From: an uncultured virus (IMG/VR IMGVR_UViG_3300025120_000023)
Lineage: Duplodnaviria; Heunggongvirae; Uroviricota; Caudoviricetes
DNA: 56,820 nt
Virus record (IMG/VR): IMGVR_UViG_3300025120_000023
Strand: one strand, 5' to 3'
Both the position numbers and the translations under genes were made by a program. The notes below the pieces were generated by a model. That model was not told where the DNA came from and ran no database searches. It saw nothing but the letters and a program-made list of their open reading frames with translations. Below, piece by piece: positions 22,421 to 54,723 of this stretch (the stretch's first letter is position 1; every line of letters begins with the position of its first letter).

Positions 22421-22434
22421 GTGTGTTAAATAAT

Positions 22435-24903: not shown

Positions 24904-24911
24904 ATGTTGTT

Positions 24912-28244: not shown

Positions 28245-28253
28245 GCTTTGGTT

Positions 28254-29375: not shown

Positions 29376-29376
29376 A

Positions 29377-31323: not shown

Positions 31324-31325
31324 GC

Positions 31326-32203: not shown

Positions 32204-32221
32204 AATAATAGTGTTGTTTTA

Positions 32222-32230
32222 TATAAATAG
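32222..32230 (-). promoter_or_regulatory. Late-type promoter box CTATTTATA
   Basis: Intergenic; core 19 nt upstream of the ATG at 32203. Confidence 0.6.
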
Positions 32231-32238
32231 GCAAGTTT

Positions 32239-36779: not shown

Positions 36780-36783
36780 AATA

Positions 36784-38876: not shown

Positions 38877-38878
38877 AA

Positions 38879-40054
38879 TTAATCTTGTGCTCCACTTAAA
38901 CCAGTTTGACCTTGTGTATAGAATCCGTTGTATCCTTCGCTAGCTGGGTCATTTGATTCTCCATCTGAAATTGGTGTTTCGTCTTGAGAAGTTGTATCGT
39001 CTGGTGATGGTTGTTCTGAGGGTGGCTCTTCGTTTACTTTAACATCCTCGCCCTTGTTTCCCTCCTTCGGTGCTGTTTTATTTGCTCCACTCCTAGCATC
39101 CTCTCCATCCTTAGCTTTGTTAGCAGTTTTTTTGACATCAGTGGAAAGCTCAATACCATATGTATTAGCCCAAGAAGCTAATGGATGAGCTAAATCATTT
39201 CCATCAGGTAAGGCTAATTTTATTGGTATTTGTTGTGTAGAAGTTAAGTACATTGAAGTTGCATCAACATTAACATCTTCTGATTGGTATGATTTGTTTT
39301 CACTCTCAGACGCTGTGTTTTTATCATTATCTACTCGCATAAGGATAATAGGATCTCCAGGCACTCCAGCTTCTGTTTGAGCAAATTGTTGCTCTTTTAT
39401 TACCTTAGTAAGGTTTGCAGGGTCGGGTGTTCCTGCAAATCTGATACTTCCTCCAAACCGACCTTGCAATACAAAATCACCCTCATTCAATGCTACTTGC
39501 TTATGTACAATAGATTTGTTTTGGTTGTTTTTAAATGCGCCTAAACTTTTAATTTTTTTATCAAATCTGCGAGACAACTCTCCTACTGTTCTCTGTCCTG
39601 GAAGGAATGGATTAATCCTATCAGGATCAATTCCAATAAATGGTGCAGAGTTTGATGTGATGTTAGCACTAGTACCAACTACTGGACCGTAGAAGGTTTC
39701 TGTAGTCATGAATACGTCAGGGCCATCAAGTTTGCTTGATTTAGCATCAAAGATTAAAACCTGCTCTCCCGGTAACGGTACTTTAAAATTACTACGATCG
39801 AGCGGATTTGCTTGTCGTGCTAACAAAGCTTCCATGAAACTAAAAGAAGTTCCTCCAGGTGACGCAAAAGCGTTTCGATAAAATACAGTACCTATTATTC
39901 TGTTTTGATCTGGATCATAGGAGGGGTGATTTTCATTTAGGATAACATCCAACACATGACCCACTCCAGACCGATTAAATGGTAAATACGGTTGAGGTGG
40001 TACTGGTGCTGGCGATGCTTTAAGAGCGCCAAATAATCCGCTGAAAAATCCCAT
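38879..40054 (-). CDS. Baseplate hub/spike protein (gp5 N-terminal OB-fold-like part)
   Basis: VPLPGEQVLI (PxxGexV motif of gp5/VgrG OB folds) and EGDFVLQGRFGGSIRF. Confidence 0.55.
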   Translation of the reverse strand: MGFFSGLFGALKASPAPVPPQPYLPFNRSGVGHVLDVILNENHPSYDPDQNRIIGTVFYRNAFASPGGTSFSFMEALLARQANPLDRSNFKVPLPGEQVLIFDAKSSKLDGPDVFMTTETFYGPVVGTSANITSNSAPFIGIDPDRINPFLPGQRTVGELSRRFDKKIKSLGAFKNNQNKSIVHKQVALNEGDFVLQGRFGGSIRFAGTPDPANLTKVIKEQQFAQTEAGVPGDPIILMRVDNDKNTASESENKSYQSEDVNVDATSMYLTSTQQIPIKLALPDGNDLAHPLASWANTYGIELSTDVKKTANKAKDGEDARSGANKTAPKEGNKGEDVKVNEEPPSEQPSPDDTTSQDETPISDGESNDPASEGYNGFYTQGQTGLSGAQD

Positions 40055-40057
40055 ATT

Positions 40058-40399
40058 CTATCCTTTATCTAGTAAATCTTGTGCTGCATCCATTAATTGT
40101 TGCTTTTCAGCCTCAGACAACATGCCATCATCTGTGTTAGTATTCTTATTGCTGGATACTAGCAATCGTTGCACAATCGCTGTCAATTTCACTAAATTGT
40201 CATCGTTTTTCACTGAGACCTCAAGATACTCTTTAACTAAAGGAACCATCATAGATGCATCAGTCATATTACGAATCATTGGTTTGAGTTGATTGATCAG
40301 CTCAGTGATTTGCTTCTCTTTCTTTTTAGTGTTATTGTAAATGTCTGCTAAAAGATCAGAAAAGTTTTTATTATCAAATAGTGGTGAATCTTTATCCAT
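40058..40399 (-). CDS. Hypothetical helical phage protein (start revised to 40399)
   Basis: The ATG at 40399 (MDKDSPLF) follows a late box; the longer track start runs through the promoter and overlaps the upstream gene. Confidence 0.7.
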   Translation of the reverse strand: MDKDSPLFDNKNFSDLLADIYNNTKKKEKQITELINQLKPMIRNMTDASMMVPLVKEYLEVSVKNDDNLVKLTAIVQRLLVSSNKNTNTDDGMLSEAEKQQLMDAAQDLLDKG

Positions 40400-40410
40400 A
40401 GTGCTTTTTA

Positions 40411-40419
40411 TATAAATAG
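40411..40419 (-). promoter_or_regulatory. Late-type promoter box CTATTTATA heading the baseplate operon
   Basis: Core 12 nt upstream of the ATG at 40399. Confidence 0.6.
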
Positions 40420-40433
40420 GTGAAAAGTAAGTT

Positions 40434-40676
40434 TTACGAAACTCCTCTACTTTCAATATCCTCTAAATACTCATACAACTTCTTGATGCGAATACCAGCT
40501 GTCCAAGCTATTCTATTTTCATAGAATCCCAACTCTGTTAACTTACCCTCTATGTCTGGCTCTAAAGGATCAAACTCAAATGCGTGCAAGTTTGGTGTAC
40601 CACAAACATCTTCCCATGCTTTGATTTCATCTAAAATAAAATCTCGAATATAGTCTTGAGATACGTTTATTAACAC
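40434..40676 (-). CDS. Hypothetical acidic protein
   Basis: 80 aa; the GTG start overlaps the stop of the sigma-like gene. Confidence 0.55.
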   Translation of the reverse strand: MLINVSQDYIRDFILDEIKAWEDVCGTPNLHAFEFDPLEPDIEGKLTELGFYENRIAWTAGIRIKKLYEYLEDIESRGVS

Positions 40677-41410
40677 TACCTTTCAATTTCGTATATTTTT
40701 TCTTTAGGGATGTAGCCTTTTTCTAAGAAATCACTATACATATGCTTCCAACGCAATTTCATGTCTTTTACAACTTTGGTGATTTGCTGAGTGTTAGCGT
40801 TGGTCATCTCGCGAATATAAACGTACAATGCTTTTTTGTTAAAAATTTCAATTCTATCTCTCTTTCTAAACAATTCCAATACTGCTTCTGCTAACCTTTG
40901 ATCACGCTCTTTTTTGTAGTATAATTCAACCTTATCATCCCAATACTCTAAATACTTTTCAAAAAACTTTTCTAAATCTGGACCTTCTTCATCTGCTGTA
41001 GGTGTTGAATCTGCAATCTCTATGGAGAGGTCATAATCAATACGTTTTGTTTCGATTAACTTTTTATAGTTTTTTCTATTCTTTAAAATGCAGTAATTTT
41101 TTGCAACCATGCTGAAATAACTGAACGCTTTGCTTCCCTTCTCTGGTTTGAATTTACCTAGCTTTTCACATAAAAAAGATACAACTTCATGTTGAACTTC
41201 ATGCAACGGAACATTGTCGGTGTAATAAAACTTGAAGGTGTGAATGATGTTTTCAACCAACTTCTCCATTGGTTTTCTAATACCTCTTTCGTATATTCTA
41301 CTCTTTACTTCTGTATCCTCTGTTGCGTTATATTCGATTATAGCCACATCAACCTCAGGACCGAAATATTGTTTTTTACTTTTTCTCGCTCTTTTCTTCT
41401 TTTGCATCAT
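40676..41410 (-). CDS. Phage RNA polymerase sigma factor (T4 gp55-like late sigma)
   Basis: YF...AIIEYN and KFKPEKGSKAFSYFSMVAKNY match sigma region 2 as in gp55-type FDPEK..(P/A)FxYF. Confidence 0.72.
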   Translation of the reverse strand: MMQKKKRARKSKKQYFGPEVDVAIIEYNATEDTEVKSRIYERGIRKPMEKLVENIIHTFKFYYTDNVPLHEVQHEVVSFLCEKLGKFKPEKGSKAFSYFSMVAKNYCILKNRKNYKKLIETKRIDYDLSIEIADSTPTADEEGPDLEKFFEKYLEYWDDKVELYYKKERDQRLAEAVLELFRKRDRIEIFNKKALYVYIREMTNANTQQITKVVKDMKLRWKHMYSDFLEKGYIPKEKIYEIER

Positions 41411-41687
41411 TGCTTATGTATTTTTTAACAAACTCATCTAAGTCTGTGGTTGCTGCTTTTATCTCTTGAAATATATATCCAGTTTCGTCGTCAGCTTCAA
41501 ATGAACCTAAACGATCAATTTCCTGCATTCTCTTGTATGCTTTATCAGTACGAAGTGCTATGACAGATAACATTCTGACATACAATTCAAGAAATCCCAT
41601 TAATTTTTCTGATTTTTTAAACTGAACGATTAGAAGCCATAATGCTACGGCTAACAATACAGACAGTGTTATAACTACTACTAACAT
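41376..41687 (-). CDS. Hypothetical membrane-anchored protein
   Basis: N-terminal hydrophobic helix; GSFEADDETGYIF motif. Confidence 0.65.
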   Translation of the reverse strand: MLVVVITLSVLLAVALWLLIVQFKKSEKLMGFLELYVRMLSVIALRTDKAYKRMQEIDRLGSFEADDETGYIFQEIKAATTDLDEFVKKYISNDAKEEKSEKK

Positions 41688-41688
41688 A

Positions 41689-42432
41689 TTATTTGAATAA
41701 TTTATCGAATGTATTTTTCAGATTATCTTTATCTGAGTCTGTGATGCTTCCTTTTTTCTTAGCAGTTTTCTTTTCTGGAAAAGTAGTTACCGGTTCTTCT
41801 TTCATCATATTAGATTCAATACGAGCTGCCATTGCATCCGCTTGATGTAACACGTAAGGAAGATTAGTACGTAAGGCGCTGTCTGGATTCCAACTAACAT
41901 AATATGGCTTGTTAGATTCTTCATACATACCATCATGTAATTTAATTCCAAACCATTCATTGTCAGTAATAGTAATACCTCTATCGTAAAGAAGTTTTAA
42001 TCCTCTATCTGGAACAGTCATAAAAGCATTTACCGGATTGTTAGTGTACAGCTTTCCTTGATTCTTTCTATGCCAATCAGACGGATTATGAATATACTGC
42101 TCAGCTTCTTCTGTTCCTATCTTTCCTAAGTCATGATTCATTGCAGAAAAGATTAATTCTTCTGTAGTGTAATCTTTTGTTGCTCCATGCTTACTCCAAA
42201 GCTTATCTACATCCAATGCACACTCCATAACACGTATAACGTGATCCACATAACCACCAATAAAGCAATTGTGGTAGTGAGCTGTGCCTGAGGCAGGCAT
42301 CATCATAATACGCTCCTCATGATCTTGATATAACTTCTTTAACTTTTCTTTTCTATCTCCTGTGACGTACTCGTCTATAAAAGACAAAAACTTTTTATAA
42401 TTATCTTGTAATTCTTCTGCTGTGTAACTCAT
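41689..42432 (-). CDS. HD-domain phosphohydrolase (YhaM-like)
   Basis: HYHN..GGYVDH, HDLGKIG, HDG and LHQAD motifs. Confidence 0.85.
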   Translation of the reverse strand: MSYTAEELQDNYKKFLSFIDEYVTGDRKEKLKKLYQDHEERIMMMPASGTAHYHNCFIGGYVDHVIRVMECALDVDKLWSKHGATKDYTTEELIFSAMNHDLGKIGTEEAEQYIHNPSDWHRKNQGKLYTNNPVNAFMTVPDRGLKLLYDRGITITDNEWFGIKLHDGMYEESNKPYYVSWNPDSALRTNLPYVLHQADAMAARIESNMMKEEPVTTFPEKKTAKKKGSITDSDKDNLKNTFDKLFK

Positions 42433-42848
42433 AACTGCTTGCTTAGTTTTTTTAACTGTGATTCTAATTTACGTCTGTATGTAACGCGTTTCTCTTTTTT
42501 AATTTGCTTTTTTAACTTACTTATATTGACAAGAAGTTCTTGATGATCTCGCCTTTTTTGAGATTTACTTCTTGTGTCTTTTTTAGGTTCTTTTCTAGGC
42601 GTTGCAGGCAGTGTTCCTTTTAATTTAGGCTGCTCCACTCCTTTATAATACACTGTGCCATTCTCATGCACAAACACCTTCATAAACTTCCATCCTCTAT
42701 GGAATCCGGAAGGTCTTTTAGGTTTTGGAAGATCATTTGGATCCCACATCTCTCTTACGCAATCAGAACAGTGTTTTAGTATAGTACCTGGAGTAATCTG
42801 ATCTCTGTACTCCATTTGTCCGCAATTTTGACATTCTAAATAAGGCAT
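42429..42848 (-). CDS. Hypothetical basic Zn-ribbon protein
   Basis: CQNC...CSDC; Lys/Arg-rich C-terminus. Confidence 0.65.
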   Translation of the reverse strand: MPYLECQNCGQMEYRDQITPGTILKHCSDCVREMWDPNDLPKPKRPSGFHRGWKFMKVFVHENGTVYYKGVEQPKLKGTLPATPRKEPKKDTRSKSQKRRDHQELLVNISKLKKQIKKEKRVTYRRKLESQLKKLSKQL

Positions 42849-42906
42849 AGCTTTCTACTTGTGTGACTATTATAGTAGTAACTATACAACTTTTTTCTCA
42901 AAAATG

Positions 42907-43356
42907 CTAATTTTCACTAATAGGTTGGAAGGGAAACACAGTCCAAGTTAAACAAAACCATAAAAACTGGCCATTTACCTTACGTTTTGTAACGTAATAT
43001 GGCAACATTCCTTGCTCTTTAAAATCTAAATTAATCGATTTTTTTATGGATTTTTTGTGAGGACTCACGTATATAAGGATATCAAACGCGTTCAAAACCA
43101 TGATATCATGCTCTTTGTCGAGTTCATCTAAGTGATCAGTAATATGATCAAAAAGAGATAATTCCTCGCACAGATAGTCAAAATCCAGCTTCTTTTCACT
43201 GCGACTAAAATGCCACATCCACTCACCTTTGACATTTTCTATAGATGGTGATTCCCCGAAAGCATTTAGGTCTAGACTAGCAGCTGCTTTTGTTATTTGA
43301 TGCTTTGCCTTTGACAAAAAACCATTATCCACTAAAGCATCGTAGTAGCTATTCAT
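42907..43356 (-). CDS. Hypothetical protein
   Basis: 149-aa ORF coupled to the upstream gene. Confidence 0.6.
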   Translation of the reverse strand: MNSYYDALVDNGFLSKAKHQITKAAASLDLNAFGESPSIENVKGEWMWHFSRSEKKLDFDYLCEELSLFDHITDHLDELDKEHDIMVLNAFDILIYVSPHKKSIKKSINLDFKEQGMLPYYVTKRKVNGQFLWFCLTWTVFPFQPISEN

Positions 43357-43357
43357 A

Positions 43358-43624
43358 CTACTTTTTTGATTTTTTAGAAGAGCGTCTTGTTGGTTTTTTA
43401 TTCGTTGCAGGCTTCACTGGCTTATCCATATTAGCTACATGCTCGAGAAGAGAATTTCTTGTTTCTTCTAGCTTTGCTATTTTTTGGTAAGCTTGGTCAG
43501 CCCACCCTTGTATGGCTTTAACCTTGAATTGTAAATCTTTAGTATTTGTATTATTTCTATATAAGACAATAGCTAGCCCTATATTAACAAATACACTAGT
43601 AATTAATAATGAAGTAAATAACAT
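43358..43624 (-). CDS. Hypothetical membrane-anchored coiled-coil protein
   Basis: N-terminal TM helix, short coiled coil and basic tail. Confidence 0.6.
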   Translation of the reverse strand: MLFTSLLITSVFVNIGLAIVLYRNNTNTKDLQFKVKAIQGWADQAYQKIAKLEETRNSLLEHVANMDKPVKPATNKKPTRRSSKKSKK

Positions 43625-43661
43625 AGTATTATGTGTTTTTAAATGTTAATGTATAAACTTT

Positions 43662-43690
43662 AATATCAGAAAAATAATCCAGAAAGTCAA
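43662..43690 (-). promoter_or_regulatory. Sigma70-like promoter TTGACT-N17-GATATT
   Basis: Intergenic with a 17-nt spacer; shares the AGTTG start and pre-minus-10 T-run with 11398-11426 and 45584-45612. Confidence 0.5.
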
Positions 43691-43716
43691 CTATTTTGTC
43701 AGATAAATTTAATTTA

Positions 43717-45033
43717 TTATGATATTGCGCCACCAAAGTAACACAACCATCTGAGGTCAGTATACTTTGTTACTACTAAAACTGCACCTGCAGGCACTGT
43801 TGCTGGGCCGTTGGTAGGTAGCATTGGTAGTAAGTTATCATCCACTCCAGGATACACTTCTAATGTTCTATTACTAACAGTATTGTGAATAGTGTATGTT
43901 GTTCCACGTGAAACTGCCGACACTAACGGAAGCTTGACACCTTTAGAATTATCAGCAGATGTAACAAACACTCTTGACATACCTGCAGCAATCTGAGTAG
44001 CACTATCTTGATTATTTCCAGCAGCTGCAACATCTTGAACCGCTTCTACATATCTAGCGGCTGAAATCTCAACACTTGCAGATATGTTTGGAGCAGTAAT
44101 AAAGCCTGATGCTGTTACGTGAGTTGTTTTTACATTGGCTAGAGCACCAACAGTTAACACACCACTTTGAATGCCTGGATTAAAGGAGAGGCTACTAGTT
44201 ACATTAACTCCATCATTTCCAGACGTAGCATTTCCAAAGTGTATGTTGAAAGCAGCATTTGAATTTTCTGTAGTTATAGCTACGTTAGTTGCGTTAGTTG
44301 CAGTTGTAGCAGTAATTGCATTTCCAGTTAAATCTCCAATAAAACCAACCGACGCACTTATAATGGAAGCTGTTACGTTTCCATTTAAAAATTGAAAACT
44401 TTGATTACTGTCTTTTACTTTAAATATAGTCTCAGCTGAAGCTCCATCTACATCTCCAATATCTACATCAAAGTTTGTTGCTCCTGCATTTAGTTTTATG
44501 GATGGATCATCAGCACCCACTGAATAAATAGAATCTTTAATAAATAAGTCATCTATTACAGTTATATCAGTACCTACTATATTACCACTCGCACTCACAT
44601 TACCTGAGGCTGTCATGTGGCCAACTACATCTAAGTTATCAAGGACTTGTAAAACACTTGTAGCACTCTTTACGATTGGGGTCGTAATTGATATGTCTGC
44701 CGTTACTTTCCCAACAGTATCAAAATTAGCTGCTGTTATGTCTCCACTTGAACTTATATTACCAGATGCTGTCAGATTAGCTGTAATAACTAACGATCCA
44801 GTAATCTGTGCGTTACCGTTATGGGTGCCATCCCACTCAGCAGTTACTCCAGTTATGTTTGTTCCGTCTCCCGAAAAGTCTCCAACGTGAGATCCAGTAA
44901 ATGATCCAGAAAAAGATCCAGAAGCTACTACTTCAGTGGCTGTTGCACCGTCTAGCGCATCAATGATTCGTGTAATATGCTCTGCGTCGATTGTTGAAGT
45001 ATTGCTAATACCAGTTCTTGAAATTGTTGCCAT
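43717..45033 (-). CDS. Tail fibre/spike-like protein
   Basis: Repeated TASGN(I/V)S(S/A)SG beta-repeats, Ala/Thr-rich stretches and a C-terminal knob (GVKLP...YTIHN); follows a late box. Confidence 0.6.
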   Translation of the reverse strand: MATISRTGISNTSTIDAEHITRIIDALDGATATEVVASGSFSGSFTGSHVGDFSGDGTNITGVTAEWDGTHNGNAQITGSLVITANLTASGNISSSGDITAANFDTVGKVTADISITTPIVKSATSVLQVLDNLDVVGHMTASGNVSASGNIVGTDITVIDDLFIKDSIYSVGADDPSIKLNAGATNFDVDIGDVDGASAETIFKVKDSNQSFQFLNGNVTASIISASVGFIGDLTGNAITATTATNATNVAITTENSNAAFNIHFGNATSGNDGVNVTSSLSFNPGIQSGVLTVGALANVKTTHVTASGFITAPNISASVEISAARYVEAVQDVAAAGNNQDSATQIAAGMSRVFVTSADNSKGVKLPLVSAVSRGTTYTIHNTVSNRTLEVYPGVDDNLLPMLPTNGPATVPAGAVLVVTKYTDLRWLCYFGGAIS

Positions 45034-45049
45034 TTATGTACGTGTTTAT

Positions 45050-45058
45050 TATAAATAG
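45050..45058 (-). promoter_or_regulatory. Late-type promoter box CTATTTATA
   Basis: Intergenic; core 17 nt upstream of the ATG at 45033. Confidence 0.6.
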
Positions 45059-45070
45059 CTTGGAATATAA

Positions 45071-45577
45071 TTAAACTTGGAAAATAGAGTCGCTTAATCT
45101 TCCTAATCCATCCGGATGATCCATGCCATACCCAAACACCCACTCATCTTGTAGAGTGTATCCGCAAAAGTCTAGCTCCATTGGACAGTCATGTCTCTTT
45201 AATAAAGTTGCTTTGTAAACGTGTTTTGCTCCTCTATCGTAAGCGAGTTTTTCTAAATATGCCATCGTCTTTCCAGAGTCACAAATATCATCTACCAACC
45301 AAACATCCTTATCTGCCAAATTAATATTCCAATCTTTATATAAGTTAATCTCACCTCTAGCTTGACCTTTATATGACTCAACTCCTACACAATCCACATA
45401 AGCGTCGAATAGTAGGTTTTTAGCTACATCCTGAAAGAATGTAATACCTCCTTGCAGGATTGGTGTTAATACTGGATACAGTGCTTTTGGTTCGTCTGGA
45501 TAAAGACCGTTCATTTTTTCTGCCAGCTCTAAAACTTTGTCCTCTATTGCATGAGGACCAAATAATATTTTTTCCAT
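45071..45577 (-). CDS. hpt: Hypoxanthine phosphoribosyltransferase
   Basis: ILQGG, VESY, PRPP-binding loop LVDDICDSGKT, LLKR and WVFGYGMD. Confidence 0.9.
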   Translation of the reverse strand: MEKILFGPHAIEDKVLELAEKMNGLYPDEPKALYPVLTPILQGGITFFQDVAKNLLFDAYVDCVGVESYKGQARGEINLYKDWNINLADKDVWLVDDICDSGKTMAYLEKLAYDRGAKHVYKATLLKRHDCPMELDFCGYTLQDEWVFGYGMDHPDGLGRLSDSIFQV

Positions 45578-45583
45578 ACACTT

Positions 45584-45612
45584 AATATACGAAAATTATA
45601 TTATACTTTCAA
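45584..45612 (-). promoter_or_regulatory. Sigma70-like promoter TTGAAA-N17-TATATT for hpt
   Basis: Exact 17-nt spacer; the -10 ends 6 nt before the ATG. Confidence 0.62.
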
Positions 45613-45987
45613 CTTTTTACCCGATGTTTTAAAATTAAGTTTACGCATAACTGTTTTAGATATTAAGTCCAGTTTTTTGGTTCTAGGATTGAATCTAAGA
45701 ACAAACGGTACGTTAATATTAGATTCCATATCAGTGATTACAGCCTCTCCACTAGCTCCTAAACTCTTTATCTCCTGTCCGTGATCCTCATATGTCTTTG
45801 TAAACAGATCCTCAATCTCTTCTGGCTCTATTGATTTACGATTACGTATATCGTTTACTCGATCCATAAAATGTCTTGTGAATTCTATATCAATTCCAAT
45901 AGCAGCAAACATCTTATCTAAGTAAGCTTCCACTTCATCTAATTCAGCTTGGTTTACTGATTCTAATATTTGTTGTAGCTTAATCAT
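45601..45987 (-). CDS. Small protein, possible BECR/RelE-like RNase fold, with leader (start revised to 45987)
   Basis: The MIKLQQILE start lies 1 nt after the upstream stop; FTRHFMDR..D.R and terminal KTVMRK pattern. The ORF is solid, the function speculative. Confidence 0.5.
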   Translation of the reverse strand: MIKLQQILESVNQAELDEVEAYLDKMFAAIGIDIEFTRHFMDRVNDIRNRKSIEPEEIEDLFTKTYEDHGQEIKSLGASGEAVITDMESNINVPFVLRFNPRTKKLDLISKTVMRKLNFKTSGKKLKV

Positions 45988-45988
45988 G

Positions 45989-46987
45989 TTATCCTGGTAC
46001 ATCTTCTTCAAACACTATTCCCTCTCCGGTGAGTGTACCATTAACACTACCTACCTGATCAGTTACTGTTGTTCCAGTACCTCCATCATTATCACCCATT
46101 CTATAATAATGTTGGATAGCTATAAATTGGTTACTATAATCAATGCTAGTAGCATCTGTAGGAACACCACTATTATATAAGTTACTTACATCAGATTGAG
46201 CCAAAGATCCAGTAAAGTATACAAATTCATCTATATTGCCGTTCATAAAATCACTTGCACCATTACGTGAACCAATGTGGAATGGTGTTGTGTCATTGGT
46301 AGAAGATCCTGGAGTCATGTTGCTGGTATCAAATGATTCCGCGTGTGTCCCATTTGATGATTGTGATACACGACTAATACCATTTACATATATATCCATT
46401 CCAGAACTACTAAAATTTCCATTATATGTTACTACCAGATGATACCAACCAAGTGATGCGTTTGGAATAATATTACCTCCTCCAGCATTGTCTGATCCAC
46501 TGTGTACAGCAGATCTTACAGTTAATCCCTTAGGATTGTTGGTGACGGGCTCCCGTCCTTGAATTAAAACTTTTACTCCACTAAAACTATCTACAGTTAA
46601 ACTTAATCCTTTATATTCTACACCTCGACCTGAAGCTACTTTACTAGCAATTCTAACTCCGCTTTCTCCTGGATTTGAATCATGTTTTACCCATGTACTT
46701 ATACTAAAAGAACTGGAAGGTGAGATTACCATATTATCACCAAACCCTATAGTACTATCCGCTACATCTCCATCAAATTTAGCAGAGTAGGTGTTTGTAA
46801 AACCACTGGCTGCAGCTGTTCCAGTATTACTACCGTAAGCCTGTAGATGTTGTTGATATCGCAAAAAAGCCTCTTTCCTTCTTCTTTGATCTTGTTTCTT
46901 TTTAGCTTTAAACGCTCCTTCCTCCTGCAACTTTTGTTTTTTTGCTAACTCACGAATATAATCTGCATTCCTTAGAAAATCTTTCAT
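45989..46987 (-). CDS. LamG/concanavalin A-like domain virion protein
   Basis: FSISTWVK, WYHLVVTY, IYVNG, FMNGNIDE and YYRMGD motifs. Confidence 0.82.
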   Translation of the reverse strand: MKDFLRNADYIRELAKKQKLQEEGAFKAKKKQDQRRRKEAFLRYQQHLQAYGSNTGTAAASGFTNTYSAKFDGDVADSTIGFGDNMVISPSSSFSISTWVKHDSNPGESGVRIASKVASGRGVEYKGLSLTVDSFSGVKVLIQGREPVTNNPKGLTVRSAVHSGSDNAGGGNIIPNASLGWYHLVVTYNGNFSSSGMDIYVNGISRVSQSSNGTHAESFDTSNMTPGSSTNDTTPFHIGSRNGASDFMNGNIDEFVYFTGSLAQSDVSNLYNSGVPTDATSIDYSNQFIAIQHYYRMGDNDGGTGTTVTDQVGSVNGTLTGEGIVFEEDVPG

Positions 46988-47856
46988 TTATCTGTAGTAG
47001 TTTCTATTGTAACTTGTATTTTTGGTTCATATCCTTGTGGTAATTTATTTACCAATCCTTTAAAAGTGGAGTTGCCAGCATCATGTCTAAACTCAAATTT
47101 AAGATTACTAAGATCCATCATCACTTGTGAAGATGTTGTAAATCCAAAACTATTATCTCGTCTATACGGATTCATCCACTTATCACTATCATGTTGCTTC
47201 GATAGAGCATCCAATACCTGCTCTTGCGATGAAATATCCGACAATGCATCGTAAGCTATTTGTTGCCTAGACAAAGAAGATTTTCTTTTTAATCCACCCG
47301 TATAACCAGTATCAGGATACTCAACTCCATGGTTAGTTCTTGTCACTACTTCATCAGGACCTATTCGCTTTATTATAGGAACATGTTGTGAAGTCATTTC
47401 AATAATATAGCTATGCTTAGCGTTTGATACAATTGTAAGCCCCTTGACCCCAACATCATCTTCATCATCACCTCTAAAATTAATCACCGATCTCATAGAT
47501 TGTGATAATTTAGATTGTTGTAATGCGGTTCTGATTTTTAATCCATCATAAGAAGGCTTACCATTCTTACCTTTTTTAGCTTTATCTTTTGCTAAATCTC
47601 CCTCTTTTTCATCAAAACCAACCATTAAAGATGCATTTACTACACCAATACCCTTCTCATTTAGACCTTCACTCCAATCGGTTAAGACGTCTCGCATATA
47701 AACCATCTCTATACCATTCACAATTTCGTGCACTACTTCAAGATCTGGAGCATACATTCTATCGCGGTTCTTTGCCAAAACTACATTGCCATCAACACGG
47801 CAGCGCGCAATCACACACTCGTTTAATTCGTGAAGAAGGTTACGTAATTTTATCAT
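46984..47856 (-). CDS. Cys-nucleophile Ntn hydrolase (C45/C59/C69-like) with a 13-residue propeptide
   Basis: C14-VIA...LAKNRD, EGLNEKG and RTNH motifs of choloylglycine-hydrolase-like Ntn enzymes. Confidence 0.75.
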   Translation of the reverse strand: MIKLRNLLHELNECVIARCRVDGNVVLAKNRDRMYAPDLEVVHEIVNGIEMVYMRDVLTDWSEGLNEKGIGVVNASLMVGFDEKEGDLAKDKAKKGKNGKPSYDGLKIRTALQQSKLSQSMRSVINFRGDDEDDVGVKGLTIVSNAKHSYIIEMTSQHVPIIKRIGPDEVVTRTNHGVEYPDTGYTGGLKRKSSLSRQQIAYDALSDISSQEQVLDALSKQHDSDKWMNPYRRDNSFGFTTSSQVMMDLSNLKFEFRHDAGNSTFKGLVNKLPQGYEPKIQVTIETTTDK

Positions 47857-47868
47857 GACAGGCTTTCT

Positions 47869-47877
47869 AATAAATAG
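47869..47877 (-). promoter_or_regulatory. Late-type promoter box CTATTTATT
   Basis: Intergenic; core 13 nt upstream of the ATG at 47856. Confidence 0.6.
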
Positions 47878-47881
47878 TCAA

Positions 47882-48289
47882 CTATTCTTTAGTTTCCTTA
47901 TGCTGATCAATCTTTTCTAGTATTTTCTTGAAGAGGTCTGTTTTTATCCATCCACTCAGCGACGCATTCTTTAATGCGCTAACTATTTGGAAAATTAAAA
48001 ATGGCACAATAACTGTTTCACTTAACCAAGAGGTTCCTACAAAACTCTTCTCTATAGAAAGGAGTACACCTAATATAACCCACCACAAAGCTAAAGTTCT
48101 TAAAACTTTTATTGCTTTATATGTTCTAAATCCTTCTCTTTTAACACCTGCTATAACACCAAAAAAGCCATCCAATAATACAACACAACCTACTGATAAA
48201 AATTGTTCTGCATTATCCATAGCAAGACCTAGGAAGTAAGAACACACAAAGGCGCATGTAGTTGTTATTGAGATTACTGCAGTTTTCAT
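47882..48289 (-). CDS. Holin (phage holin 4-like family)
   Basis: Several TM helices, LDGFFG motif, SALKN and a charged C-terminal tail; overlaps the endolysin stop. Confidence 0.75.
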   Translation of the reverse strand: MKTAVISITTTCAFVCSYFLGLAMDNAEQFLSVGCVVLLDGFFGVIAGVKREGFRTYKAIKVLRTLALWWVILGVLLSIEKSFVGTSWLSETVIVPFLIFQIVSALKNASLSGWIKTDLFKKILEKIDQHKETKE

Positions 48290-49257
48290 AAAGCTTTAAG
48301 CATATCAACTAATTCTAATTGTGGAAAGCAATCAAACTTATCTTTACGAACATTTGTGTGAGTCCATAATCCAAATTGCTTTGCATTATAAGCATCTGAG
48401 TTAAACTCAAAAGCATCTTTAGGATGTACTCCCTCTTTTAGGAGTTTAGGTAATCCATTAACCAGATCCATTTTTGGATAAATGTCTTTAAGATGTAATA
48501 TAAGCAATCGAAGAGCTTCAATCTGCTTTTCTGTATAAGCATGCCAGTATTGGTGTCCTCTAAACTTATAACCTAAATCACAAACAAATTCCGGTTTAAC
48601 TTCTGTATTAACATATGTGTAATATTTGTCTCCAGAGGTCGAAGGTTTCTTAGTTAGGTATCCAAAGTTATTAAGCTCTACTCCTCCAGACATCTTTGAA
48701 ATTGCAAACTTACCCACTTTACCTAAGTGCCAACCTACGTAATTATTAGGAAAACACTCTACGACAGTTCCGTCGTATTTAGCTTCTTTACCCTTTACAT
48801 TAGAACCTCCAATACAGTACTGAGTAGCTACTCTTCCTCGCTTATCCTTGTTCCAGCTGTGTATGGTGTTGTATGGATTGTCCCAACCAGCAGTGTGATG
48901 TATAAAGAATCCTAACGGTTCAATCTTGCCATAATCTCTTACATACTCATCAGAATCCAAATACACCTTATCAATCACAAGACCACCTTTAGTTGTGTAT
49001 GTTCCGTGTTTTGCTAACTTATCATCCTTATCATACGCTGTATCTTCAGCCGTAGTGTCCTTAGTGTTATCTGTGTCAATTCCTGCAGCTTCCCATGTTG
49101 CTCGACCAACAATTCCATCTGCTACCAAGCCATTTTTCTTTTGCCACTCAACTGTCAACTTCTCTGTACCTGCACCAAATATTCCATCTGCTGGCGTACC
49201 TATCACCTTCTGCCACTCCTTTACTTCTAAACCTCTACTTCCTTTTTTTAACAACAT
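48286..49257 (-). CDS. Endolysin: PG-binding domain plus N-acetylmuramoyl-L-alanine amidase (Amidase_2)
   Basis: LKKGSRG..VKEWQ and two DGIxG repeats; IHHTAG, WHLG, GVEL and TH....KFDC zinc-amidase motifs. Confidence 0.9.
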   Translation of the reverse strand: MLLKKGSRGLEVKEWQKVIGTPADGIFGAGTEKLTVEWQKKNGLVADGIVGRATWEAAGIDTDNTKDTTAEDTAYDKDDKLAKHGTYTTKGGLVIDKVYLDSDEYVRDYGKIEPLGFFIHHTAGWDNPYNTIHSWNKDKRGRVATQYCIGGSNVKGKEAKYDGTVVECFPNNYVGWHLGKVGKFAISKMSGGVELNNFGYLTKKPSTSGDKYYTYVNTEVKPEFVCDLGYKFRGHQYWHAYTEKQIEALRLLILHLKDIYPKMDLVNGLPKLLKEGVHPKDAFEFNSDAYNAKQFGLWTHTNVRKDKFDCFPQLELVDMLKAL

Positions 49258-49271
49258 ATTTTATTTTTTTA

Positions 49272-49601
49272 TTAGAAATCACTCATCATAGACTCATCCA
49301 CAAACTCTTGCACATCTTCTTGCTTTGCATCAATTTGCATCATAATATTAGCCTGATATCTTTTCTTTTCCTCTCCATCAACAAACACTATTATAGTAGG
49401 TAATACCACTATTTTATATTTTGTTTTTAGTTTAGGATATTTGGTAAGATCATAATACTTAACACTGCAGTCTGTTAACTTTCCGAGCCAAGCTACCTTA
49501 TTAGCATCATTCCACGAAGCATTAAAATGTTTAACAACCACTTGAGAATAACTCTTCGTAGCACACAAACATATTAACGCAAACATCAATATTAATCTCA
49601 T
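49272..49601 (-). CDS. Exported thioredoxin-fold protein lacking CxxC
   Basis: Signal peptide ending SYS|Q; HFNASWN replaces FxAxWCxxC; YKIVVLPTIIVFVDGEE cis-Pro motif. Confidence 0.7.
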   Translation of the reverse strand: MRLILMFALICLCATKSYSQVVVKHFNASWNDANKVAWLGKLTDCSVKYYDLTKYPKLKTKYKIVVLPTIIVFVDGEEKKRYQANIMMQIDAKQEDVQEFVDESMMSDF

Positions 49602-49606
49602 AGCTT

Positions 49607-49891
49607 TTATCTTAGTTTGTCAATTTTTTCCTCTATACGATCCATATCTTCCTTCAACTCTGTGACATCTTCTTGAGTTGTCATAATAGTTTGTCGAACC
49701 AACTGATCTTTCATATCGTACTCCATCCGTGTCACTTCAGGATCTGGAGGGATCGGAAGCTCTTTTGCTTCTTGTATATCTGCTTGTAATGCAAACCACA
49801 TTCCTACTATGGTCGCAATTGCAAAAGCAAGACCTACCAAAGTTTTGATACTTATCTTAAAACCTGTATCCTCATTTAACTCTTTTGCCAT
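49607..49891 (-). CDS. Single-TM protein with C-terminal coiled coil (i-spanin-like topology)
   Basis: TM segment LVGLAFAIATIVGMWFAL followed by heptads VTELKEDMDRIEEKIDKL. Confidence 0.6.
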   Translation of the reverse strand: MAKELNEDTGFKISIKTLVGLAFAIATIVGMWFALQADIQEAKELPIPPDPEVTRMEYDMKDQLVRQTIMTTQEDVTELKEDMDRIEEKIDKLR

Positions 49892-49893
49892 TT

Positions 49894-50958
49894 TTAAAAA
49901 ATTATGTAATTGACACCAACACTAAAGTTGTGCCAACTACGATTCCAGTACTTGTTATATTTGCCTTCTAGGAACACTCCTAAGCTTTTATTGAACTTGT
50001 AACCGAAAATTAATCCTCCAGAATAGTCGATCCACTGACCGCTGTTAAAGTTGTGATATGAGTAATCACCATCTGCCTTTAGGTGCACTGGCATTACATT
50101 ACCCCATGAGTGCAACCAAAAATCTTTAGTATAATGATAGAAGTCAAACCCTATAACAAGGGAATGATTCCACTGTAAAGGTAGAGCACTTCGCTCTTCC
50201 TCTGTGTATTTTGCTAACACTTCTGGAACAACAACCGCTTCCCACACTTGAGTGTTTTCTGCTACTAACTCTCCTGCTGGATCAAAATATGTAACACCAC
50301 CAAAACCATCAAATTCAACTGAATACCCTTCTTGTATTGCTAACTGAGTGTAGTGCAGATTACCATCGGATAACAACCAACTTTCTAATGGATTGTATCC
50401 ATATGGCTCCGATATACGCTGTACTGCTCCTATATTAAACGACAACTTATCGCCTACTTTTTGTCTATATCTTTCTGAAGATTCAAAATATTGAATATCT
50501 GCAAATCCATCTTGGACATACTCAACCTTAGCTATCCAATGATTAGCTACATATCGTAAAAAATGATCTTGATTAAAAAACGACGTTCCTTGCTGTCTAG
50601 TCCAATCTGCCTCAAATAAAAATTCAAAGCCATTTATTTTTCCAATTGTAGCAGCGTCTCCGTATGATTTTTCTGTACCGTCATAAAACACATTAGCTCG
50701 ATTTTCATAACCAAATCTAGCAATCTTTCTCACACCTATTGCAATAGAATAATCAAAAGGTGTTTTAACTGTGTTTGTCTGCAATCCATCTGTCACTGAA
50801 AATACATCGACATCTGAAATTGAGTTACCACCCGAGACTGCTCCATAAAACGTAGAGTATTTGACTAACTTTTTAACAGTCTTAGAGAATTTAGATTGCT
50901 CTTCTTGACCGAATAATATTGTTGGTATTAGTAAGAATAGTATTAAAAGCTGCTTCAT
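49894..50958 (-). CDS. Outer-membrane beta-barrel-like protein
   Basis: Signal peptide ending LFG|Q; alternating aromatic beta strands; C-terminal FSVGVNYIIF ending in Phe (BAM beta-signal). Confidence 0.68.
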   Translation of the reverse strand: MKQLLILFLLIPTILFGQEEQSKFSKTVKKLVKYSTFYGAVSGGNSISDVDVFSVTDGLQTNTVKTPFDYSIAIGVRKIARFGYENRANVFYDGTEKSYGDAATIGKINGFEFLFEADWTRQQGTSFFNQDHFLRYVANHWIAKVEYVQDGFADIQYFESSERYRQKVGDKLSFNIGAVQRISEPYGYNPLESWLLSDGNLHYTQLAIQEGYSVEFDGFGGVTYFDPAGELVAENTQVWEAVVVPEVLAKYTEEERSALPLQWNHSLVIGFDFYHYTKDFWLHSWGNVMPVHLKADGDYSYHNFNSGQWIDYSGGLIFGYKFNKSLGVFLEGKYNKYWNRSWHNFSVGVNYIIF

Positions 50959-53357
50959 TGTTTTATAATTCTTTTAGTAAATCTCTTTTCTTCATGTATT
51001 AGTGTTAAGAGATATACACCGGTTTCATATATACCCAACTCTAAACGATTATCCTTTCCAGTCAACATTAGTTTACCCATCATATCTCTCAACTCATAAT
51101 TAAATGTTAGATGTGTTTCAATAGTGACGGTGTTGTCTGTTGGGTTTGGATATACGAGAATTCCATTAATATCCATCTCGTCAATACCCACTGGCCACCC
51201 TTGTTGACAGTAATCATACATAGATTGACATGATGCATCCCATTCATTTTCACAACAATAAACATCTACATCTATTACCCAAGCATAGCATCCATCATTT
51301 AACCAGTAAGGGTTTCCAGGACCACCTACACATCCTGCGTCATATAGACAAGCTAATGAGTCTGTTACATTTGCTGTTGGATCATAATTAAATGCATTTG
51401 GATCTGTACATCCAGCAACTGGCAATATACATGTCCCATTATCTGTATTAGCTAGGGGATCGAAGTTTAATGCTGTTGAGTCTATACACCCAAAAGTGAC
51501 TGGTATACAAGATCCATTATCCGTATTGGCTAATGGATCGTAATTAAATTGTGTAGGGTCCATACAACCATAAATAACATCTATACAGCTTCCATTGTCG
51601 GTGTTTGCGTTTGGATCGTAATTAAAGGCGTTAGGATCTGTACATCCATATATTGGATAAATACATGTACCATTATCGACGTTTGCTGTAGTGTCATAAT
51701 TTAGAGCAGTTGAGTCTGTGCATCCAAAATATATACAAGAACCGTCATCAACATTAGCAAGAGAATTGTAGTTGTAAGATATAGAATCCATACAACCATA
51801 TACTGTAGCAATACATGAACCATCATCAACGTTTGCATTTGGATTATAGTTAAATGCTAGGTTATTTGTACAACCTTCTATGATTGCAATACATGAACCA
51901 TCATCGGTATTGGCTAATGAATCGTAATTAAATGAAGTAGAATCCATACAACCATATATTTTAGGTTCACAATAATCTCCACAGAATGGCAATGCAGAAT
52001 ATGTAATCCATGTTGGTTCTTCAAAAGGCTGTAATGCTCCTTGTCCATTATTTGCAAATGGATTAGCACCTTCTTCTAACAGCACAACACCATCTGCATT
52101 TTCTAACTTAAATGAATTATGCCAGGTCTGGAATTGTACTTGAGAAGGTGGTTGTTGTGGTCCACCTACTTCAAAGTAATATACCTTGACTGGTTTATCA
52201 GTATCTAATTGTAATGGAAAGGTTTGGCTAGATGCACCTGGTCCCATAGTATAAGTCCATAAATTTGTTCCTTGAGCAACACCTAAATAAGAATTACCCC
52301 ATCCATCACTAGCATCATCTTCTATTGTTAGTGTGTAGTTACAAGTTGGAATTATAGCTTGCATTGTAGCATTAGAGTCATAATTAAATGCTGCAGTATC
52401 AATACACCCATACACGTGCAGATTAGCACATGTACCATCATCTATATTAGCTAGCGAATCAAATTCTTGATATGCAGGATCTGTACATCCTAACACAGGA
52501 GTTATACCGCTACAAGGAACACCAAATACTGGTCCCGAATATGCTGTAGAACCGAAGTTAGGATTACCTAATTGCCATAAGACACTACCATTGCAATCAT
52601 ATATAGTAATATCACCATCAACCGTACCGCCAGTAGTTGATCCAGCTAAACCATCACCATAAGAATCACTAAATATTAACTCTGCACCTGCAGGATCAAC
52701 ACATACAGTATAGCTGTAGGTTTGTCCTATATCATTAAAATCGTAAGTACCTTGTCCATTGTTTTCGAGCTGATTCCCGTTTGACAGGTCTACTAATATC
52801 CACGAAGTTTCGCTTGGATAGCTGTCTAAAGTTACCTCTACTGTTATTTCAAAATCTCCAGGATCACAGCCACTACTCCCACCTCCACCAACACAAGAAC
52901 CATCATCTTCTGTCGCCCATGGATTATATGCTATAGAGTTAACATCCATACATCCAGGTATACAAGCAGATGGAGTGTATGCTATAGTATCGGATTGTGT
53001 TCCGTTAGAATAATTTAAAATTAGATAATGTTCTACAGACCAGTTTGGAGGCATATTCGGTGTTCCGGCAAATACACCAAAGTTGCCTTGAGGTGAACTT
53101 GAAGGATATCCTATTGGATATATAAATGGTCCAACTCCTGCGGCAGTTGAATACTCTACCGAAACAACATCCTCATTGCAATTAGCAGTAGTATCGTTAA
53201 ACCATTCAAATATAATAATTACTTGACTTCCACCATTAATGCATTGTTGATATGCATTTGAACTTATAAAGTTGCAAGGTGTTTGCGCAATAGAAATTAT
53301 TGGCAATAAAACCGCTAACAGAAACGCACTAAAACTCTTCGTCAGAAACTTCTTCAT
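50955..53357 (-). CDS. T9SS type A sorting domain-containing protein with Cys-rich repeats (start revised to 53357)
   Basis: Signal peptide MKKFL...SIA|Q; 11 GCxD..A.NY..A..D.G(S/T)C-type repeats; C-terminal VYPNP...GVYLL...TKRIIK. Confidence 0.88.
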   Translation of the reverse strand: MKKFLTKSFSAFLLAVLLPIISIAQTPCNFISSNAYQQCINGGSQVIIIFEWFNDTTANCNEDVVSVEYSTAAGVGPFIYPIGYPSSSPQGNFGVFAGTPNMPPNWSVEHYLILNYSNGTQSDTIAYTPSACIPGCMDVNSIAYNPWATEDDGSCVGGGGSSGCDPGDFEITVEVTLDSYPSETSWILVDLSNGNQLENNGQGTYDFNDIGQTYSYTVCVDPAGAELIFSDSYGDGLAGSTTGGTVDGDITIYDCNGSVLWQLGNPNFGSTAYSGPVFGVPCSGITPVLGCTDPAYQEFDSLANIDDGTCANLHVYGCIDTAAFNYDSNATMQAIIPTCNYTLTIEDDASDGWGNSYLGVAQGTNLWTYTMGPGASSQTFPLQLDTDKPVKVYYFEVGGPQQPPSQVQFQTWHNSFKLENADGVVLLEEGANPFANNGQGALQPFEEPTWITYSALPFCGDYCEPKIYGCMDSTSFNYDSLANTDDGSCIAIIEGCTNNLAFNYNPNANVDDGSCIATVYGCMDSISYNYNSLANVDDGSCIYFGCTDSTALNYDTTANVDNGTCIYPIYGCTDPNAFNYDPNANTDNGSCIDVIYGCMDPTQFNYDPLANTDNGSCIPVTFGCIDSTALNFDPLANTDNGTCILPVAGCTDPNAFNYDPTANVTDSLACLYDAGCVGGPGNPYWLNDGCYAWVIDVDVYCCENEWDASCQSMYDYCQQGWPVGIDEMDINGILVYPNPTDNTVTIETHLTFNYELRDMMGKLMLTGKDNRLELGIYETGVYLLTLIHEEKRFTKRIIKQ
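51348..51959 (-). repeat. Eight tandem coding repeats of about 23-27 aa (GCxDxxAxNYxxxAxxDxGxC)
   Basis: Visible in the translation and as degenerate DNA repeats; three more dispersed copies lie upstream in the same gene. Confidence 0.85.
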
Positions 53358-53667
53358 TTTTATTGTTACTTTTGTTGTTACTAAACACCTTACCAATCTC
53401 AGCAATACCAAAACTACCTAAGGTTACTATTAAAAATGAGTTATAAATAAACTCCGAAATAACTAGATGGTTACCTAACACACCAGTTATAATGTCTGTG
53501 ATTGCAAATATTGCCATCATACCAAATGAAAGAAAACCAACTATAGTTTTCTCATTGATACCATTATCGTCTTTGAAAATATCTCTAAAAGCCATAAATT
53601 TTCTATTTAAGAACATCACAATTCTTGAAACCTTTATAGCATTATATAACCTCTTAAAGATGCTCAT
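53329..53667 (-). CDS. Small two-TM membrane protein
   Basis: Two hydrophobic segments (IVGFLSFGMMAIFAI and FLIVTLGSFGI); first gene after a late box; alternative ATG at 53595. Confidence 0.65.
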   Translation of the reverse strand: MSIFKRLYNAIKVSRIVMFLNRKFMAFRDIFKDDNGINEKTIVGFLSFGMMAIFAITDIITGVLGNHLVISEFIYNSFLIVTLGSFGIAEIGKVFSNNKSNNKNEEVSDEEF

Positions 53668-53673
53668 GTTAAT

Positions 53674-53682
53674 TATAAATAG
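53674..53682 (-). promoter_or_regulatory. Late-type promoter box CTATTTATA heading the envelope and lysis operon
   Basis: Core 7 nt upstream of the ATG at 53667, right after a terminator. Confidence 0.62.
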
Positions 53683-53687
53683 CTCTG

Positions 53688-53718
53688 AAAAATAGAAAAT
53701 GCCGGTCTTGCCGGCATT
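53688..53718 (-). terminator. Rho-independent terminator
   Basis: Minus strand AATGCCGG-CAAGA-CCGGCATT perfect 8-bp stem followed by TTCTATTTTT; 21 nt after the stop at 53740. Confidence 0.8.
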
Positions 53719-53739
53719 AACTTTAAGCTGTTTATTGTT

Positions 53740-54723
53740 TTATAAAATAAATTCTTGAATATTAAACGCGTTCTTAATCTCTCGCACTTCTTGCATGAAA
53801 TCTCGTCGATTTTCATCGGGTAACTGTTTAGAAATGTGCAATATAAGAGCGGTACTTGTCTTGAATTTTTTCGTAATTTTTTTGTCAAATCCATTAGCCT
53901 CAGCCACCTCACATATCGTGTTAAAAACACCTAAATCCATCGGATTTTTGGTGATTTCTGCCATCGTATCTTGCGCATCAAAAAGCTTTTTTAGAAAGTC
54001 TTTAAAGGTAGGATCGGTGGTTTTTACTTGCGGAAACTCTTGCTGAACTTTACCTAAAAATTCGTTAAAATCACTCGATTCATCCGCTAAAATGTCTAAT
54101 TCTGAAAATGCTCCTTCGTCTAGCTTTATTGCATATCTACCTAGATTCTCTTTAAGATCATCCTTACGCATATACCCTTGAACCACAGTACGAGGATTAG
54201 CTATACTCTTCATTTTATCAAGAAATTTCAATCTCTCACCTAACACGTTTTGCATGAGCTCTATCGTTTCAGAATCGAATTCATCATTAACATATGCAAC
54301 GAACTCCTTAGCTGTGAATTTGGGTGCTGCCCCTTCATTAACTGATTCTTTCTCATAAATCTCTACAGCATCATCGCCATATTGTTTTATCTTCCAGCCT
54401 CTCAGTTTTCCAAGCCTCATAACAGATTTTACAAATAGAGTTTTGTCGCTAGCTGATATATTAGTATCATCTATGTTTAGCATCCAACCTTCACCATCAC
54501 CATCAGCAGATCCACCACTTCTTGCAAACATGTTGTTATCTAAATCAATAGCAGGTCGACCAGTAATTTTCGTAAATAGAGTCTCTACTTCTTCGTAGTC
54601 ACCACTATCGTATTTGAATGCAGCTTCGTTAACTGACTTATACATCTTTACTTCTTCCTTAACGATGGTACGGATTTTCGATACCTCTTCGTTTACAATA
54701 CTACTTATGTCTGCTTTTTTCAT
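53740..54723 (-). CDS. Acidic multi-segment protein, putative processed internal head protein
   Basis: Repeated VNE/VKE/LKE/LDE motifs separate short segments. Confidence 0.6.
   Translation of the reverse strand: MKKADISSIVNEEVSKIRTIVKEEVKMYKSVNEAAFKYDSGDYEEVETLFTKITGRPAIDLDNNMFARSGGSADGDGEGWMLNIDDTNISASDKTLFVKSVMRLGKLRGWKIKQYGDDAVEIYEKESVNEGAAPKFTAKEFVAYVNDEFDSETIELMQNVLGERLKFLDKMKSIANPRTVVQGYMRKDDLKENLGRYAIKLDEGAFSELDILADESSDFNEFLGKVQQEFPQVKTTDPTFKDFLKKLFDAQDTMAEITKNPMDLGVFNTICEVAEANGFDKKITKKFKTSTALILHISKQLPDENRRDFMQEVREIKNAFNIQEFIL

Follow-up and report, generated by a model that had tools for sequence, protein, structure and literature searches.

A phage Cys-type Ntn hydrolase with a prohead-protease-type site directly before its predicted nucleophile: possible arming by head maturation

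The window analysed here is a stretch of 56,820 nucleotides from an uncultured virus (IMG/VR record IMGVR_UViG_3300025120_000023), and our subject is the gene at 46984..47856 on its minus strand. Judged by a structural model, the encoded protein is a cysteine-type N-terminal nucleophile (Ntn) hydrolase with Cys14 at the nucleophile position. Cys-type Ntn hydrolases need the nucleophilic Cys as a free N-terminus, and in this protein a leader of 13 residues stands before it. By its sequence the leader is a tag resembling the capsid-targeting sequence (CTS) of phage T4, shared with other proteins of the same phage and extended by three residues that put an L-N-E site against Cys14. We favour, with slightly better than even confidence, the reading that the prohead protease of the phage cleaves the leader in trans, which would arm the enzyme in the head. 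The features on which this reading is built are the following.

46984..47856, minus strand: gene of the Cys-type Ntn hydrolase, an open reading frame of 290 residues; distant relative of peptidase C45 / AAT
47818..47856, minus strand: 13-residue leader MIKLRNLLHELNE, with a CTS-like part (L4, L7, L8, E10) and a second site, L-N-E, flush with Cys14
47815..47817, minus strand: Cys14 codon TGT, the predicted N-terminal nucleophile, placed by alignment with homologues and solved enzymes
47869-47878, minus strand: ACTATTTATT box, a putative late promoter element common to structural genes

The protein opens MIKLRNLLHELNE and continues C14-VIARC; KNRD occupies residues 29-32, EGLNEKG residues 63-69 and RTNH residues 173-176, so that all the motifs named in the first-pass annotation, which was made from the sequence alone, are present in the translation. 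Within the leader, L-H-E ends at residue 10 and L-N-E at residue 13, the codon of Glu13 being GAG (47818-47820, minus strand). The start of the protein is unambiguous, because an in-frame stop lies 20 codons 5' of Cys14, that is, 7 codons above the sole ATG (loci L012-L015, identical copies).

Fold of the enzyme and the residues before its nucleophile

An AlphaFold2 model of the hydrolase, built on an alignment of 61 homologues, reached a pLDDT of 89.6 and a pTM of 0.88, with only residues 1-10 below 50. It has the four-layer alpha-beta-beta-alpha fold of Ntn hydrolases, and its strand 14-21 begins at Cys14. A Foldseek search returned 92 PDB matches at E <= 0.001, headed by IAT (2x1c, E 5.7e-9) and followed further down by CV2077, bile salt hydrolases (BSH), penicillin V acylase (PVA), NAAA, acid ceramidase, TANGO2 and phospholipase-B-like protein. 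Structural alignments with CV2077, NAAA, IAT, acid ceramidase and BSH gave Z-scores of 16-20.5 and root-mean-square deviations of 2.8-3.2 over 197-227 residues, and they pair residue 14 of the model with the mature first residue of the solved enzymes (C126 of NAAA, C103 of IAT, C143 of acid ceramidase, C2 of BSH and C1 of PVA). Cys14 is invariant among the 61 aligned homologues, as are N30-R31-D32-R33, R173, N175, H176 and R232. The Ntn fold, at first guessed from a few motifs, is thereby upheld by the model, with Cys14 where the nucleophile is expected.

By sequence the enzyme stands apart from the curated families. It scores 20.4 bits against Pfam AAT (PF03417), under the cut-off of 23.2, and 35.1 bits against the NCBIfam model C45_proenzyme (NF040521, autoproteolytic acyltransferase/hydrolase), under the cut-off of 85; because neither cut-off is reached, we class it as a distant relative of C45 and not as a member. 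A PHROGs search yielded no family for it. Run by sequence against PDB, a profile of the 61 homologues recovered no chain of the family, and its sole match, isocitrate dehydrogenase (E 0.038), was set aside as chance.

Relatives were collected by a word-indexed search (181 relatives) and by an exhaustive profile search, which yielded 588 representatives, many of them domains within proteins of 500-2800 residues. Of these representatives 255 score E <= 1e-30. The two profiles found at least 473 and at least 487 encoding stretches in IMG/VR. After removal of duplicates, 350 distinct proteins have a residue visible before Cys, and 330 have a leader of at least three residues. Among the closest homologues Glu precedes Cys in 110 of 111 and Asp in the other one (9 of 120 are N-terminally truncated or lack the motif), so the L-x-E-C of the window cannot be put down to chance. 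Over the whole set of 350 the residue before Cys is Glu in 247, Ala in 64, the initiator Met in 20, Ser in 10 and Gly in 6, with Asp, Gln and Val once each. The M-C forms mirror BSH, in which Cys is exposed by removal of Met.

The first and the third residue before Cys vary together. In the Glu class the third residue is L/I in 218 of 247 proteins and L/I/V/M in 237, and in the Ala/Ser/Gly class it is K/R in 80 of 80. Sorted by motif, the 330 proteins with sufficiently long leaders comprise 237 with (L/I/V/M)-x-E, 80 with (K/R)-x-(A/S/G), 10 with another residue in other-x-E and 3 remaining combinations; the mixed forms (L/I/V/M)-x-(A/S/G) and (K/R)-x-E do not occur at all (0). Glu stays flush with Cys over leader lengths from 4 to 433 residues. 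In a FastTree phylogeny of 192 rows (all non-Glu rows and 90 randomly chosen Glu rows, with SH-like supports only) the two motif classes form two clades, and the M-C label needs 5 changes, at least 4 of them forced by the starred branches. I/L-x-E is found in at least two lineages inside the K/R-x-A clade (P0173 with P0176, and P0175), implying that both positions switched together.

The first-pass annotation expected Glu before Cys to be conserved in phage homologues and proposed a contrast with cellular homologues starting M-C. The first part proved right, Glu being near-invariant in the clade; for the second there are no close cellular homologues to set against the phage proteins. None turned up with the first profile in a pattern-limited scan of 185,579 species genomes, and the second profile gave two metagenome-bin contigs, one with RVASRH...REA-C and one with M-C.

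Long forms of the hydrolase, of about 365-390 residues, have an extra N-terminal domain of about 90 residues (...LIKIFTH...) and then (L/I)NE-C (loci L022-L026, L031-L032 and L037; proteins P0030-P0074). Pfam has no family for this domain, as scanned in P0030, and one open reading frame of the long form has 334 residues before Cys.

The leader, the phage and its prohead protease

Over positions 1..54469 the window matches virus record G001 (165.6 kb, 98% complete) at 111141..165609 with 99.98% identity. Genome-wide statements rest on G001 together with the last 2351 bases of the window, in all 207 called proteins. Twelve of the 207 N-termini have hydrophobic residues at positions 4, 7 and 8 and Glu at position 10 (or all of these shifted by one), against 0.75 expected, with a maximum of 3.1, from the same pattern in internal control windows. 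The typical leader reads MIKLKDILxE, and three more proteins carry looser versions. Behind the shared leader the proteins are mutually unrelated, and most of them belong to no family. Nine carriers stand in a run of consecutive genes (G001 8609-14438, loci L003) behind a late-type box: they start M(I)KLKDILxE, diverge totally thereafter and are 81-360 residues long, one being HAD-like, one having a weak YfbR-like stretch and the others having no family. This run looks like a cassette of internal proteins or cargo. In distant phages, clusters of genes with similar leaders adjoin the hydrolase gene itself.

This arrangement resembles that of T4, in which IPI, IPII, IPIII and Alt, proteins unrelated to one another, share a short leader that the prohead protease gp21 removes; positions 4, 7 and 8 of this leader are hydrophobic and position 10 is Glu. 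As set out in PMC9026906, T4 gp21 cuts after L/I-X-E. In the 10-residue CTS, positions 4 and 7 determine targeting and positions 8 and 10 determine processing, and cutting is blocked by Asp at position 10. The leader of the hydrolase has L4, L7, L8 and E10 in the same spacing. T4 cargo includes enzymes: Alt, an ADP-ribosyltransferase that is injected, loses only six residues at ITE-6 according to PMC5694885, and short leaders are therefore a known substrate. The first-pass annotation, which gave the 13 residues a head-targeting function, was made without knowledge that a dozen proteins of this phage share such a CTS-like tag, which would act here as it does in T4.

It could be argued that the shared N-terminus is an element of the DNA, spread by repeated recombination or kept for translation start, and not a functional peptide, and the nine adjacent carriers could indeed stem from tandem duplication. 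We regard this as extremely improbable. The DNA upstream of the copies is unrelated, their Ile, Lys, Leu and Asp codons differ synonymously while the peptide is kept, which points to selection on the peptide and not on the DNA, and similar leaders occur in distant phages.

The protease required by the favoured reading is encoded in G001, outside the window.

G001 101586-102200: Peptidase_S77 prohead protease, gp21-type (91 bits)

The product aligns to the structure of T4 gp21 (5JBL, E 5.7e-15) and has His and Ser at positions where the crystallised 5JBL chain has Ala. We take these two positions to be the catalytic pair of a gp21-type protease. A T4-type prohead protease, on which the first-pass annotation had relied, is thus found in G001. 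The likeness to T4 extends to an L/I-x-E site and to a gp21-type protease gene. Among records carrying the E-C or M-C form, S77 is encoded in 8 of 8 that are at least 90% complete and in 15 of 32 overall, the remainder being fragments; because this would be expected for related phages anyway, we read it as consistency and not as independent proof.

In the gp23 homologue (G001 97172-98803) L-K-E occupies residues 53-55, about where, judged by length, the propeptide cut of T4 would be expected. This is consistent with an L/I-x-E specificity.

We take the source to be a T4-like phage that infects marine Bacteroidota. Besides the protease, the genes of G001 include those for the major capsid protein gp23 (254 bits), the gp20 portal, a terminase of T4 type, the tail tube and the sheath, and its nearest cultured relatives by capsid are Flavobacterium phage vB_FspM_immuto and Microcystis phage Mel-JY01, with Rhodothermus phage RM378 more distant. 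All large open reading frames of the window lie on the minus strand, among them the following.

50955..53411, minus strand: 818-residue protein ending in a Por_Secre_tail (type 9 secretion) sorting domain

This sorting domain points to Bacteroidota as host, and its presence on a phage protein suggests that the phage uses the secretion route of the host.

The timing of the hydrolase may be read from the ACTATTTATT box, which ends 12 nt ahead of its ATG. The motif [ACT][CAT]TATTTAT[AT] has 41 sense matches in the sequence of G001 plus window, against 13 antisense, and 25 of the 41 stand no more than 40 nt ahead of a called start. The genes preceded by it include tail tube, sheath, portal, terminase and several tail genes; judged by the identity of these genes, ACTATTTATT would be a late promoter and the hydrolase a late product. 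The late-type box seen in the first pass is hence a real, recurrent element before structural genes. Beside the late-type CTATTTATA box, two other intergenic motifs recur in G001 plus window, CCGTATATT(A/T)A and GTTGCA...CCTGAYCTTTACWATGTAAAG, which are probably early or middle promoter classes.

Cleavage in trans or self-cleavage

In the reading that we favour, the gene would be expressed late and its product made as a zymogen, which the tag would carry into the prohead core. The prohead protease would then cut after Glu13, possibly first after Glu10, and so give Cys14 the free amino group required for Ntn catalysis. The active enzyme would remain in the head, be ejected with the DNA into the next cell and there hydrolyse an amide bond of a host molecule. 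In T4 the cut only frees cargo from the core, whereas here it would create the catalytic N-terminus. In favour of cleavage in trans, the motif before Cys equals the gp21 rule and is anchored to Cys and not to the tag, and the first and third residues before Cys vary together.

The main rival is ordinary Ntn autoprocessing, in which an N-to-S acyl shift at Glu13-Cys14 would let the folded precursor shed its own leader, in the manner of IAT, PVA, NAAA and acid ceramidase. The motifs (L/I)-x-E and (K/R)-x-(A/S/G) would then be two structural ways to hold the scissile bond, and the leader may still be a capsid tag, or may merely delay activity. IAT and the C45 families (PF03417, NF040521) share the fold, their first strand opening with the Cys nucleophile, and provide the best Foldseek match and the weak sequence matches; the nearest curated family, that of NCBIfam, is named autoproteolytic. 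IAT, NAAA, acid ceramidase and PVA have been solved as precursor and as mature forms, and the precursors of four related families align with the model through the end of the leader (model 6..279 to IAT 95..349, model 10..261 to the NAAA precursor 122..356). The short propeptide of PVA (precursor 2iwm) has a counterpart in the leaders of 4-5 residues, and the (K/R)-x-(A/S/G) class has small residues before Cys, which we take to be typical of self-cleaving Ntn enzymes. Finally, an Ntn domain inside a polyprotein has to be released with Cys as its very first residue, an outcome that is built into self-cleavage.

The comparison with these enzymes also brings out differences. IAT has a self-cleaving pro-region of about 100 residues ending in Gly-Cys, whereas the hydrolase is without that pro-region and has a leader of 13 residues ending in Glu-Cys. 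NAAA, acid ceramidase, BSH and PVA match at Z 16-20, with Cys14 on the mature N-terminal Cys, but share only 11-18% identity and are cellular or lysosomal self-activating enzymes. Autoprocessing leaves three things unexplained: the match of the motif to the T4 gp21 rule in phages that bear gp21 homologues, the perfect co-variation of the first and third residue before Cys (0 mixed forms in 330), and the copying of the tag onto proteins without the Cys. Moreover, fast self-cleavage would probably strip the leader before assembly, defeating a tag that is needed until the prohead is built. We consider autoprocessing less likely than cleavage in trans, though a serious rival.

Several points nevertheless weigh against arming by the prohead protease. 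Cys-Ntn hydrolases that have a propeptide cleave themselves as a rule, and a conserved acidic residue before the nucleophile could assist in this, as in the analogous case of glycosylasparaginase. In many relatives the leader comprises just 4-5 residues (MINE-C, MKLSE-C), too short as a targeting tag. The M-C forms (20 members) are found in phages that also carry S77; these phages can do without arming by the protease and tolerate an enzyme that is active as soon as it is made. For the same reason, the earlier proposal that the leader keeps the enzyme inactive until maturation is weakened as far as the need for inactivity goes. In five viral contigs with the K/R-x-A-C form, which are 6-27% complete, neither S77 nor S78 was found, which at this completeness tells neither way. 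The protease gene lies outside the window, in the 99.98% identical G001 and not in the window's own assembly, and the holin and endolysin genes that adjoin the hydrolase gene would also fit a role in lysis. Among cultured relatives, the Chryseobacterium phages MA9V-1 and MA9V-2 carry a form with ...FLNE-C, and passages of the MA9V-1 paper show an SDS-PAGE gel and no virion proteomics.

A second leader element was noticed in the (K/R)-x-(A/S/G)-C class. RVA(S/A)R(Y/F/H) stands about 10-15 residues before Cys in P0143, P0148, P0168, P0198, P0208, P0247, P0251 and P0254 and at locus L172, and a looser pattern occurs in 11 of 45 leaders of at least 15 residues; another group of phages may use this element as its tag. 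Among the named phages searched with a protein of the K/R-x-A class, the domain was found only in two Chryseobacterium phages.

More broadly, and with the balance of probability somewhat against us, we speculate that head-maturation proteases activate a phage-only Ntn family in two dialects. T4-like phages would use (L/I)-x-E-C, and a second group, made up largely of huge phages that encode cargo polyproteins, would use (K/R)-x-(A/S/G)-C behind the RVASR-type leader. In both a zymogen unable to arm itself would be armed in the capsid and the enzyme shot into the next host, where it would cut an amide-linked host molecule before phage gene expression. To our knowledge the Ntn class is known only as self-activating, from which activation in trans would depart, and a literature search found no paper joining an Ntn hydrolase with a prohead protease.

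Neighbouring genes, fused relatives and possible function

The genes around the hydrolase, and two further proteins of the window with CTS-like N-termini, are listed here.

48286..49257: endolysin with PG_binding_1 and Amidase_2, upstream of the hydrolase gene
47882..48289: holin, Phage_holin_4_1, upstream of the hydrolase gene
45989..46987: Laminin_G_3 protein, downstream of the hydrolase gene
45601..45987, minus strand: 128-residue leader-bearing protein starting MIKLQQILE, a recurrent neighbour of the hydrolase gene
546..845, minus strand (G001 111686-111985): 99-residue protein starting MELKKLLSE, with a CTS-like N-terminus

A small protein of no assigned function also lies downstream of the hydrolase gene. 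Of 160 related loci, 17 give a tblastn match to the 128-residue protein, at 0.2-3 kb on the downstream side of the hydrolase gene, and in distant phages it forms the C-terminal part of proteins of 440-660 residues; possibly the two proteins work together. Another N-terminus, MKL(N/T)R(K/Q)(R/T)LME(V/M/R)AGL, is common to the proteins at window 55933..56277 (minus strand) and at G001 64372-65529 and 65591-66187, and may represent a second leader family.

The order endolysin, holin, hydrolase, which is kept in the window and in 9-10 close relatives, could suggest an accessory enzyme of the lysis cassette, which would act in the producing cell late in infection on an amide of the envelope (a peptidoglycan stem peptide or an N-acyl lipid) and would not be cargo of the virion. 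A peptidoglycan hydrolase is at most two genes away in 4 of 38 representative loci (Amidase_2 in 2, GH19 in 1 and Phage_lysozyme in 1, the window's own locus included and L032 left out), a weak enrichment, and NAAA and acid ceramidase, which are among the closest structural relatives, cut lipid amides. However, the neighbours are DNA-metabolism genes, tail genes or genes of unassigned function in 34 of the 38 loci, the lysis genes are already gone at 73% identity (L020) as synteny fades, and the hydrolase gene has a late-type box of its own. No signal peptide or membrane segment is seen in its sequence, and a role in lysis leaves the leader unexplained. We therefore hold such a role to be improbable.

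In other phages the hydrolase domain sits inside proteins of 500-2800 residues. The partners found when 55 longer relatives were scanned are given below, with the number of occurrences.

Topoisomerase IB: 9
DUF5661: 6
LigT/2'-5' RNA ligase: 5
PolyA_pol head domain (CCA-adding-type): 4
GGACT: 3
RNA ligase: 2
HAD_SAK_1: 2
Zeta-toxin-like kinase: 2
Superoxide dismutase, GNAT and cytidylyltransferase-like: once each

A GGACT gene also lies directly upstream of the hydrolase gene at locus L113. The long fused relatives look like cargo polyproteins of several enzymes. In this they resemble the polyvalent proteins of phages and conjugative elements described in PMC5512222, in that the same Ntn domain is a module of very long multi-enzyme proteins, in company with RNA-repair modules, and one fused relative has an ART-PolyVal-like stretch, below cut-off. 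The hydrolase of the window differs from these in being a single domain of 290 residues, only its relatives being fused. The polyvalent-protein paper proposes zincin-type metallopeptidases for processing (PMC5512222), and a term search of its text found no mention of a hydrolase fold, an acylase or an N-terminal nucleophile.

By structure, the nearest relatives are enzymes that cut amides of lipids or small molecules. We infer no more than an amidase that would act, once ejected, on some molecule of the host, or alternatively at lysis.

Ntn hydrolases are the standard case of enzymes that make their own catalytic residue. If the favoured reading is true, a family that leaves this activation to a maturation protease of the virus would represent a new form of zymogen control, and capsid proteases would switch cargo on, beyond trimming it. 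The leader and its cut site also offer a readable code for likely head cargo in uncultured phages of seas and lakes, amounting here to about a dozen proteins, mostly of unassigned function. These leader-bearing proteins make a shortlist of candidate enzymes for early host takeover or counter-defence.

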